The translations under genes were made by a program, and so were the position numbers. From Candidatus Bathyarchaeia archaeon (GTDB lineage Archaea > Thermoproteota > Bathyarchaeia > 40CM-2-53-6), in the NCBI GenBank assembly GCA_050013255.1, contig JBEKFP010000003.1, positions 192,001 through 256,000 on the forward strand: a DNA stretch of 64,000 bases. Direction: 5' to 3'. Within the stretch, counting starts at the first letter, position 1, and the number at the start of each line of letters is the position of its first letter. Under the pieces are notes generated by a model. The model worked only from the letters and a program-made list of their open reading frames with translations, had not been told where the DNA came from and ran no database searches. Shown piece by piece: positions 29,463-30,388 of this stretch.

Positions 29463-29494
29463 ATACTAGTGGTGCGACCGTCGTAATTTGAACC
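29463..29494 (+). repeat. Junction A: 14-mer ATACTAGTGGTGCG + tRNA T-loop mimic
   Basis: GAGTGTGTG|ATACTAGTGGTGCG|ACCGTCGTAA-TTTGAACC. Confidence 0.8.
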
Positions 29495-29521
29495 GTCGTT
29501 CAGGTCGTCCTTGTGTGTGTG

Positions 29522-29553
29522 GTATCAGTGGTGCGAGCACCCAAATTTGAACC
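29522..29553 (+). repeat. Junction B: 14-mer GTATCAGTGGTGCG + tRNA T-loop mimic
   Basis: GTGTGTGTG|GTATCAGTGGTGCG|AGCACCCAAA-TTTGAACC. Confidence 0.8.
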
Positions 29554-29569
29554 ACCAGACATAAGGGGG

Positions 29570-30241
29570 CTATGGGAGTGTGATGCCGAATACACCTACG
29601 GCTCCTCGTATGAGGAATGAGATGCCAATGGCTCCCATAAGTATGTCCATGACTTTTCCAGTTATTACCATGACTGATGGCTTCAGGACTTTCATGAGTC
29701 TACTGCTCAAACTGAACAGTAACCAAACGATCACGCAGTCAACCACAATCGCGACTGCCATGCTGAAATCCATCCACCCCTTCGCGGCTCCATACTGAGG
29801 ATTGTTGAGTACCATAACTGTCGCAATCGCCCCTGGTCCAGCCAATAGTGGAATAGCCAACGGGAAAACGGCTATACTGTCAGTAACGCCACTTGACAGG
29901 GTGCGCCCCCTCCTCCTGTATAGGGATTTGGCCGCGCTCTGGACTTCGGATGAGGCGACATCTTTGACCGCGAAGACGAGAATGAATACGCCTCCCGCGA
30001 TCATCACGGAATTGAGAGTGATTTGGAGGGCGCCTAGGATTGCGTCGCCCAAGTACGCGAACACCAACAGTACCGCTATGGCGACTGTAATCGTCTTCCT
30101 GGCAATCGCAGCCTTCCGTTCCCCTGTGGCCCCAGCTGTAAGCCCCTGAAAGAACGGAATAACCCCGAGTGGGTTTAGGATGACGAATAGTGTAATCAGG
30201 GATTCGGTAAGGTCCTGCAGAAAGCCGGTCGAGAATGACAA
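29570..30241 (-). CDS. MarC family membrane protein
   Basis: LF.ILNPLG, IAGG, IAVFPLAIPLLAGPGAI. Confidence 0.92.
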   Translation of the reverse strand: MSFSTGFLQDLTESLITLFVILNPLGVIPFFQGLTAGATGERKAAIARKTITVAIAVLLVFAYLGDAILGALQITLNSVMIAGGVFILVFAVKDVASSEVQSAAKSLYRRRGRTLSSGVTDSIAVFPLAIPLLAGPGAIATVMVLNNPQYGAAKGWMDFSMAVAIVVDCVIVWLLFSLSSRLMKVLKPSVMVITGKVMDILMGAIGISFLIRGAVGVFGITLP

Positions 30242-30294
30242 AACGTCAACACGCCTACCGTAATGCGCTCGGGGCTACCTAAATGTGTGTGTAG

Positions 30295-30326
30295 GTAGTG
30301 ATGGTGCGGGCGCCGTAAATTGAACC
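30295..30326 (+). repeat. Junction C: 14-mer GTAGTGATGGTGCG + tRNA T-loop mimic
   Basis: TGTGTGTGTAG|GTAGTGATGGTGCG|GGCGCCGTAA-ATTGAACC. Confidence 0.8.
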
Positions 30327-30356
30327 GTCGTTCGTCGTCAAAAAAATGTGTGTGTG

Positions 30357-30388
30357 GGTCTTATGGTGCGAGCATCGCAAATTGAACC
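30357..30388 (+). repeat. Junction D: 14-mer GGTCTTATGGTGCG + tRNA T-loop mimic
   Basis: GTGTGTGTG|GGTCTTATGGTGCG|AGCATCGCAA-ATTGAACC. Confidence 0.8.

Follow-up and report, generated by a model that had tools for sequence, protein, structure and literature searches.

The tRNA 3′-end mimics in the window, by which we mean the whole 64,000-nucleotide stretch of a Bathyarchaeia contig analyzed here, are probably portable target sites of a casposase. The host, a Bathyarchaeia archaeon from peat, carries a polymerase-less casposase 8 kb from the mimics. Each mimic, which we call a pad, looks like a tRNA-Gly 3′ end that would have been cut down to the parts read on DNA, i.e., a T-loop-derived leader, a fixed 9-bp spacer, and a 14-bp target that starts with CGCACCA and closes with 7 further bp (N7). 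Cassettes landing inside one another at such pads could build gene arrays anywhere in the genome.

We found all five mimics where a sequence-only reading had placed them and with the motif and spacing it had described, the 14-mers starting at 29463, 29522, 30295, 30357, and 47044 and each being followed on the plus strand by 10 nt and (T/A)TTGAAC. Read on the minus strand, every one of them runs from the leader TTCAA(A/T)T through 9 bp to CGCACCA, a further 7 bp, and a C/A-rich or C-rich tip. The pattern RGTTCAAWT-N9-CGCACCA matched the window five times, against a mean of 0.01 and a maximum of 1 in shuffled sequence. Its spacing is the same as that in the real tRNA-Gly(UCC) at 49307 to 49401 (minus strand), the sole tRNA in the window, which has an intron, encodes its CCA, and ends in CGCACCA. 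As had been claimed, T-stem pairing is not conserved (0, 0, 0, 0, and 1 of 5 Watson-Crick pairs). The stretch called "10 variable nt" was indeed 10 nt long, but it is partly constant, with G at −3 in 108/113 sites and C at −2 in 102/113. Independent peat metagenome contigs cover the four clustered mimics without any difference and cover the one at 47044 as well, ruling out an assembly artifact.

All five pads of the window are on the minus strand. Pad 1 (29463 to 29493, N7 ctagtat) lies 45 bp inward of a tip starting at 29521, and a CACAC tip follows it at 29462; the 45-bp tip-plus-leader segment (29477 to 29521) comprises a CACAC tip, a subterminal ACGACG motif, and the leader. Pad 3 (30295 to 30325, N7 tcactac) is 48 bp inside the tip at 30356, and one strain contig varies at 30298 and 30299, within its N7. 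Pad 5 (47044 to 47074, N7 gcatacc) lies 29 bp after the junction at 47087, so that the three mimics said to lie 29 to 48 bp inside the next junction were measured at 45, 48, and 29 bp. Pad 4 (30357 to 30387, N7 taagacc) is 76 bp inside the tip at 30446; its tip and leader recur in the relative G017 in another context, in the opposite orientation to the outer 14-mer and with the core lost. Pad 2 (29522 to 29552, N7 ctgatac) is a far pad with no tip upstream, and its leader starts 18 bp beyond the stop codon of a marC-family cargo gene (29570 to 30241, minus strand), which is flanked by the tip at 30294 and by pad 2. Two decayed pads had escaped the sequence-only reading: one at about 31545 to 31592 (minus strand), whose CGCACCA core is gone while its tip and leader are intact, and one at 45161 to 45192 (plus strand), recognized by direct reading, with the core CGCATCA, a leader one base off, and a position 43 bp inside the tip at 45136.

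Several neighboring features are recorded here in their own right. The EamA gene at 28213 to 29462 stands in a genus-typical arrangement after an SCO4226-like gene, and in G014 a copy with 94% identity forms a cassette, homologous from the start codon as far as the tip at 29452 and with a pad lying upstream of it; the pair is possibly a snapshot of gene capture, in either direction. Region 30700 to 31500 has no open reading frame of at least 90 aa, shows a contig depth several-fold above that of its flanks, has a 93% homologue in G004, and is possibly a widespread noncoding or small-gene cassette. An exact copy of the pad 1 14-mer at 63235 to 63248, inside a leuD-like coding sequence and without leader or tip, was taken as chance. 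At 47087 to 47113 (minus strand) lies an ordinary att-like scar, in which 26 of 27 bp equal the tRNA-Gly 3′ end and its flank and which forms a class distinct from the mimics. Between this repeat and the tRNA, an integrase-free block (47087 to 49326) holds an ArsR-type HTH gene and two SRPBCC genes; the block recurs in G004 with 91% identity, where the tRNA is 2.7 kb further away.

To avoid circular selection, 100 stretches taken from nine relatives were pooled with this genome; the regions were chosen around sites and the genomes are kin, so the resulting counts are not independent, and that for G000 takes in a few tRNA ends with a mismatched core. The ten related genomes hold about 250 pads (253 in the pooled set), and this genome alone has about 115 sites, grouped into some 20 clusters. 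Among 185,579 species genomes, almost every exact match to the complete site carried the label Bathyarchaeia. The pad pattern occurred in 19 of 22 congeners, with no matches for a reversed control, and of 251 genomes sampled from the class, just those of three families within one order had it. When sites were selected by core and downstream tip, the leader appeared at offset 0 in 126/168 non-tip sites and almost nowhere else; when they were selected by leader and tip, the core was 97 to 100% conserved. Three independent selections yielded the same tripartite site. The tRNA type nearest to the pads is Gly, and the pads likely descend from a tRNA-Gly end, which they match at 0.92 to 0.99 at positions −17 to −12 and −10 (leader values that are partly selected) and at 0.08 to 0.27 at −21 to −19, −9, −5, −4, and −2. 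In G046, a member of another family (L190 to L199), nearly all pads share one 14-mer (N7 aggtacc), a state nearer to that of a CRISPR repeat.

The conserved positions are those that casposases are known to read. For integration, the Aciduliprofundum boonei casposase requires TCAAATC at a distance of 8 bp before its 14-bp target, of which the distal two-thirds can be lost (PMC6614799), and the targets of the Methanosarcina mazei casposase are 14 bp long and start with CGCA, with mutation of bp 12 to 17 upstream abolishing integration (PMC6977970). The mimics keep TCAA(A/T)T at −15 to −10 and CGCA at the start of the 14-bp target. Together with the lost T-stem pairing, this agreement supports the earlier suggestion that the mimics are sites recognized as DNA, by what would be a casposase.

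The proposal that such sites are used as insertion targets was borne out by polarized 14-bp duplications starting with CGCA. An identical 14-mer was found downstream on the same strand in 27/138 pairs but upstream in only 1/122, with 4/150 and 6/148 on the opposite strand. Among the occupied pads with a candidate partner, 24/88 have, downstream on the same strand, a matching 14-mer with an element end before it, where shuffles had a mean of 3.1 and a maximum of 11; a matching duplication is thus seen in only 24 of the 88 testable cases. Also on the opposing side, pads with a following tip (194) far exceed chain-ending sites (71). In the window, pad 5 was used twice in tandem, its gcatacc 14-mer recurring as a second copy at 36065 to 36078 and as a third at 30447 to 30460, where the chain that starts at pad 5 ends (both minus strand); the copies bound segments of 10,965 and 5,604 bp. 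The 5,604-bp composite unit between copies 2 and 3 (30461 to 36064) contains EamA, methyltransferase, and unknown genes as well as internal 14-mers in both orientations. The Cas1 unit is flanked by inverted 14-mers, and the duplication bounds the larger composite at 36079 to 47043. In G014, a cas1-bearing 8.6-kb element sits inside a pad with a perfect duplication. Pads 1 to 4 are each followed by a tip and have no partner 14-mer remaining in the window, and we failed to find a clean empty-versus-occupied pair for any window pad.

Many pads travel as part of the cassettes themselves. A tip lies 28 to 66 nt upstream of 107/253 pads, compared with 6/306 other non-tRNA sites, and these near-tip pads point into the element regardless of the outer 14-mer (forward 56, reverse 43). 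Among the elements bounded by perfect duplications, 11/33 have a pad no more than 90 bp from one end and 22/33 have no end pad, indicating that pads are optional cargo. One cassette shares its tip and an empty pad between G004 and G014 (97.6% identical, in opposite orientation to the outer site) and has a decayed pad in G010, its contexts differing among the three genomes; one cassette family was found behind at least five different pads, and the tips of one and the same cassette are joined to one side of the 14-mer in some genomes and to the other side in others. These inward-facing pads, end pads, and homologues agree with the idea that cassettes carry a fresh target. Growth by nesting through carried pads, which had been proposed alongside it, held in that pads are both carried and used, but only about 40% of them are near a tip, and the near-scrambling of N7 described below is unexplained by simple nesting. 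The remaining 60% or so lie away from any tip, e.g., beside a cargo gene as does pad 2 or in 125- to 240-bp modules that adjoin tRNAs or copies of other tRNA ends.

Among such modules, those of 165 to 190 bp at G000:C1:167600-171900 and in L095, L048, L109, and L070 were seen in five genomes, in contexts unrelated to one another; a pad forms one end of them, and the opposite end is a T-stem-paired copy of the 3′ end of a different tRNA type. Pads also stand 125 to 200 bp behind real tRNA genes (G000:C1:855441-855600, 1151607-1151750, and 1237020-1237190; L125; L192), most of which do not end in CGCACCA; the pads may turn these tRNAs into landing zones. At L044:6040-6130, a short stretch that contains two GTGTG ends and a third 14-mer separates two pads pointing toward each other, the result of a rearrangement or an assembly error.

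It had also been suggested that carried pads let the array grow without touching the essential tRNA. This is a weak reason for them. Insertions occur at real tRNA-Gly genes as well, both here and in relatives (a tip after the end of tRNA-Gly(UCC) is absent in the window and present in G013 and G015). Since the duplication begins within the acceptor stem, it restores the gene, and protection of the tRNA is therefore an unlikely advantage. What pads likely offer is more targets, at any locus and independent of tRNA loci.

The candidate enzyme is a casposase-type Cas1 of 404 aa (39179 to 40393, plus strand). Its best solved relative is 6OPM (E value of 8e-77, versus 2e-22 for CRISPR Cas1), the alignment covers residues 4 to 395, and E167, H236, and E253 correspond to the catalytic E, H, and E of the M. 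mazei casposase, which points to a Cas1-solo casposase with a putative C-terminal HTH region. The surrounding element (36079 to 45121) has a perfect 16-bp terminal inverted repeat (36079 to 36094 and 45106 to 45121), the cassettes having short CACAC-type tips, and carries an HNH nuclease gene (38400 to 38888; HNH_3, E value of 2e-15). It is without a family B polymerase: no polymerase-size open reading frame was found in it, and the three PolB genes of the genome are all away from the site clusters and cas1. A PF03175 profile search gave no match anywhere, its controls likewise being unmatched. Immediately behind cas1, a TIR-domain gene (40395 to 41159) is probably defense cargo, and five imperfect 45-bp tandem repeats lie at 38053 to 38353 within the element. 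In the relatives, many genomes have several 3′-part cas1 fragments besides or instead of a full gene, with 15 matches in G017. No Cas1 was found in pad-bearing G018 (98% complete) or G016, so the enzyme must be transient or missed there. The genome's three tyrosine integrases are all outside the site clusters, in which no PF00589 match was found, and no tyrosine integrase was found in G018. We infer from these sequence comparisons that the Cas1 casposase performs the insertions at pads.

It is very improbable that the mimics are instead attR scars, formed at tRNA genes by tyrosine integrases, that decayed and were later used by chance or never. There is one true scar in the window, that at 47087 to 47113, relatives have T-stem-paired ends of other tRNAs in modules nearby, and casposons share tRNA targets with tyrosine-integrase elements (PMC4779613). 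However, each of the five mimics has 6 to 10 mismatches in 28 positions to any tRNA end of the genome, 211 of 213 exact-core pads have 6 or more, and most pads lie 12 to 110 kb from any tRNA. The uniform decay expected of ordinary scars was not found; decay is strongly uneven between the leader, where the values are partly selected, and the other positions given above, and the integrases are where the pads are not. Only the separate scar behaves as attR should, and the scar reading is largely refuted; the first pad may itself have arisen from an attR scar. Sites of a tyrosine integrase or of dif type were rejected likewise, since the clusters are integrase free, none was found in G018, and the inverted arms are 14 bp apart.

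The CCA end at tRNA spacing might also suggest mimicry at the RNA level, as processing signals or small RNAs, for which we see hardly any chance. The pooled pads have a mean of 1.17 of 5 T-stem Watson-Crick pairs, compared with 1.30 when the partners are shuffled; neither a cloverleaf nor an acceptor stem folds, and conservation extends beyond CCA to N7 and the tip, for which an RNA end would have no use. ARAGORN and Rfam recovered the real tRNA alone, in line with the earlier expectation that the mimics are not tRNAs. Just as improbable is that the leader behind a tip is an end-binding site for excision whose likeness to a target is a by-product: the leader does abut the subterminal ACGACG in 49/107 near-tip pads compared with 23/146 others, but two-thirds of the duplication-bounded elements (22/33, as above) manage without an end pad, core and spacing are conserved, and near-tip pads have duplications of their own. 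CRISPR-like spacers, i.e., short tip-plus-pad units inserted alone, were rejected on finding identical flanks in only 2/56 units.

A more substantial question is raised by N7. In eight homologous pad pairs, the flank differs by 11%, the 9-bp spacer by 24%, and the last 7 bp by 46%, random pairs differing by 57%; the comparison of homologous cassette ends that had been suggested thus upheld the leader and core as conserved and showed N7 to be nearly scrambled. Plain insertion would copy the last 7 bp, so N7 must be exchanged, by segment loss between 14-mers or by strand exchange within them. Moreover, where copies stand in different contexts, their homology repeatedly spans tip to pad and goes no further, which keeps alive an integron-like exchange in which the 14-mer is the crossover site, the pad the cassette end, and the casposase a reversible recombinase. 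Strand exchange within the 14-mer would release units of tip, gene, and leader as circles, any two 14-mers serving as the boundaries, and would let them insert again at another place. Besides the boundaries and the scrambled N7 beside a stable leader and core, the scarcity of identical flanking 14-mers around short direct units (the 2/56 above) favors it, and M. mazei casposons excise to one empty site, a circle being proposed, not detected (PMC10359463). Against it, perfect polarized duplications are common, cassette tips meet either side of the 14-mer across genomes as symmetric transposon ends do, composite movement with deletion between repeats gives the same pattern, and the pads of G046 nearly all carry one N7. 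We consider this exchange rather unlikely; it extends the portable-target explanation more than replacing it. Joints in metagenome contigs, one of which skips 36078 to 47041, have a short side of <30 letters or come from repeats and were not relied on. Somewhat speculative, too, is the idea that the casposase now acts as a reversible integron-like recombinase, with genes captured between tip and pad and shuffled among leader-plus-14-mer sites freed from tRNAs, which we regard as doubtful.

Under the portable-target explanation, the arrays could arise as follows. A trans-acting Cas1, encoded by a minority of elements, would join tips of the type CACACAC, CCGCCCCC, CGACGACG, or GGGGATAT to both edges of a 14-mer, which is seen to be duplicated. 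Many elements have an inward pad 28 to 76 bp behind one tip, as their positions and homologues show, and each insertion thereby supplies a new target. As the polarized duplications show, later elements have entered that pad or inserted in tandem at its leader-proximal edge. Outer tips could then mobilize composites, a movement that would leave 14-mers in both orientations and stacks of 45- to 62-bp tip-plus-pad units. Loss of the segment between two 14-mers, through the enzyme or by microhomology deletion, would finally swap the last 7 bp. At G000:C1:254435 and 716091 and at L207:8560, the tip after the 14-mer is of the GGGGATAT type and resembles the tips of described casposons, which adds another kind of end at the same target.

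Family 2 casposons, i.e., MetMaz of M. mazei (6OPM) and AciBoo-C1 of A. boonei, are the closest known elements. They share with the present system a casposase with a C-terminal extension and an intact triad, an HNH gene, inverted ends, a 14-bp duplication from CGCA, a T-loop-derived leader at equal distance (TCAAAT(C) about 8 bp upstream of the target), tandem insertion, and insertion in either orientation (PMC4779613, PMC6614799, PMC6977970, PMC10359463). In contrast, the arrays here have no polymerase, most units are enzyme-less, the ends are very short, and each genome has dozens of degenerate targets, many inside elements, whereas known casposons have one to three sites in the host, which at times hold tandem copies or are also taken by other elements (PMC4779613). 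In the way it works, the system resembles a family 2 casposon, but it falls outside that family on the polymerase. In logic, the nearest analogy to pads is island accretion at att sites: in the accretion and cis-mobilization of ICEs, IMEs, and CIMEs (PMC5704250), too, a resident element offers the next site and composites move together, but there tyrosine integrases and a border att copy are at work, and here an extra, degenerate, internal site and a Cas1-type chemistry with duplication. CRISPR leader-repeat arrays share the Cas1 chemistry, a leader that polarizes insertion, and a duplicated target between inserts, but the inserts here are gene sized with their own ends, the 14-mers vary, an array has many leaders, and we saw no sign of a guide function. 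Nor do the segments form repeats and spacers, being mostly 0.4 to 3 kb or 32- to 59-bp tips, with short units lacking identical bounding 14-mers. Integrons and CALINs likewise consist of one-gene cassettes that are each tied to their own recombination or target site and served by an enzyme in trans, as here; they differ in that the present clusters are free of integron integrases (no PF00589 match) and rely on linear motifs and 14-bp duplications instead of folded attC hairpins. In the literature searched, with most subscription papers outside its reach, we failed to find any description of element-borne casposase targets or of such arrays.

The CRISPR repeat has been proposed to derive from the preferred target site of a casposase (PMC6977970). 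The genomes examined here present what looks like such a target freed from the tRNA, multiplied, carried by elements, and equipped with a leader that polarizes insertion, and about 250 natural variants map what the casposase would read, making the idea on the origin of the CRISPR repeat testable. If the integron-like exchange were true, the system would be a living intermediate between a casposon and a CRISPR leader-repeat, acting on genes instead of spacers. At 31 bp, a pad would also offer a single-protein integrase a compact site to land in. For the archaea themselves, an abundant uncultured group, portable pads would be a route by which enzyme-less one-gene cassettes could build accessory islands.
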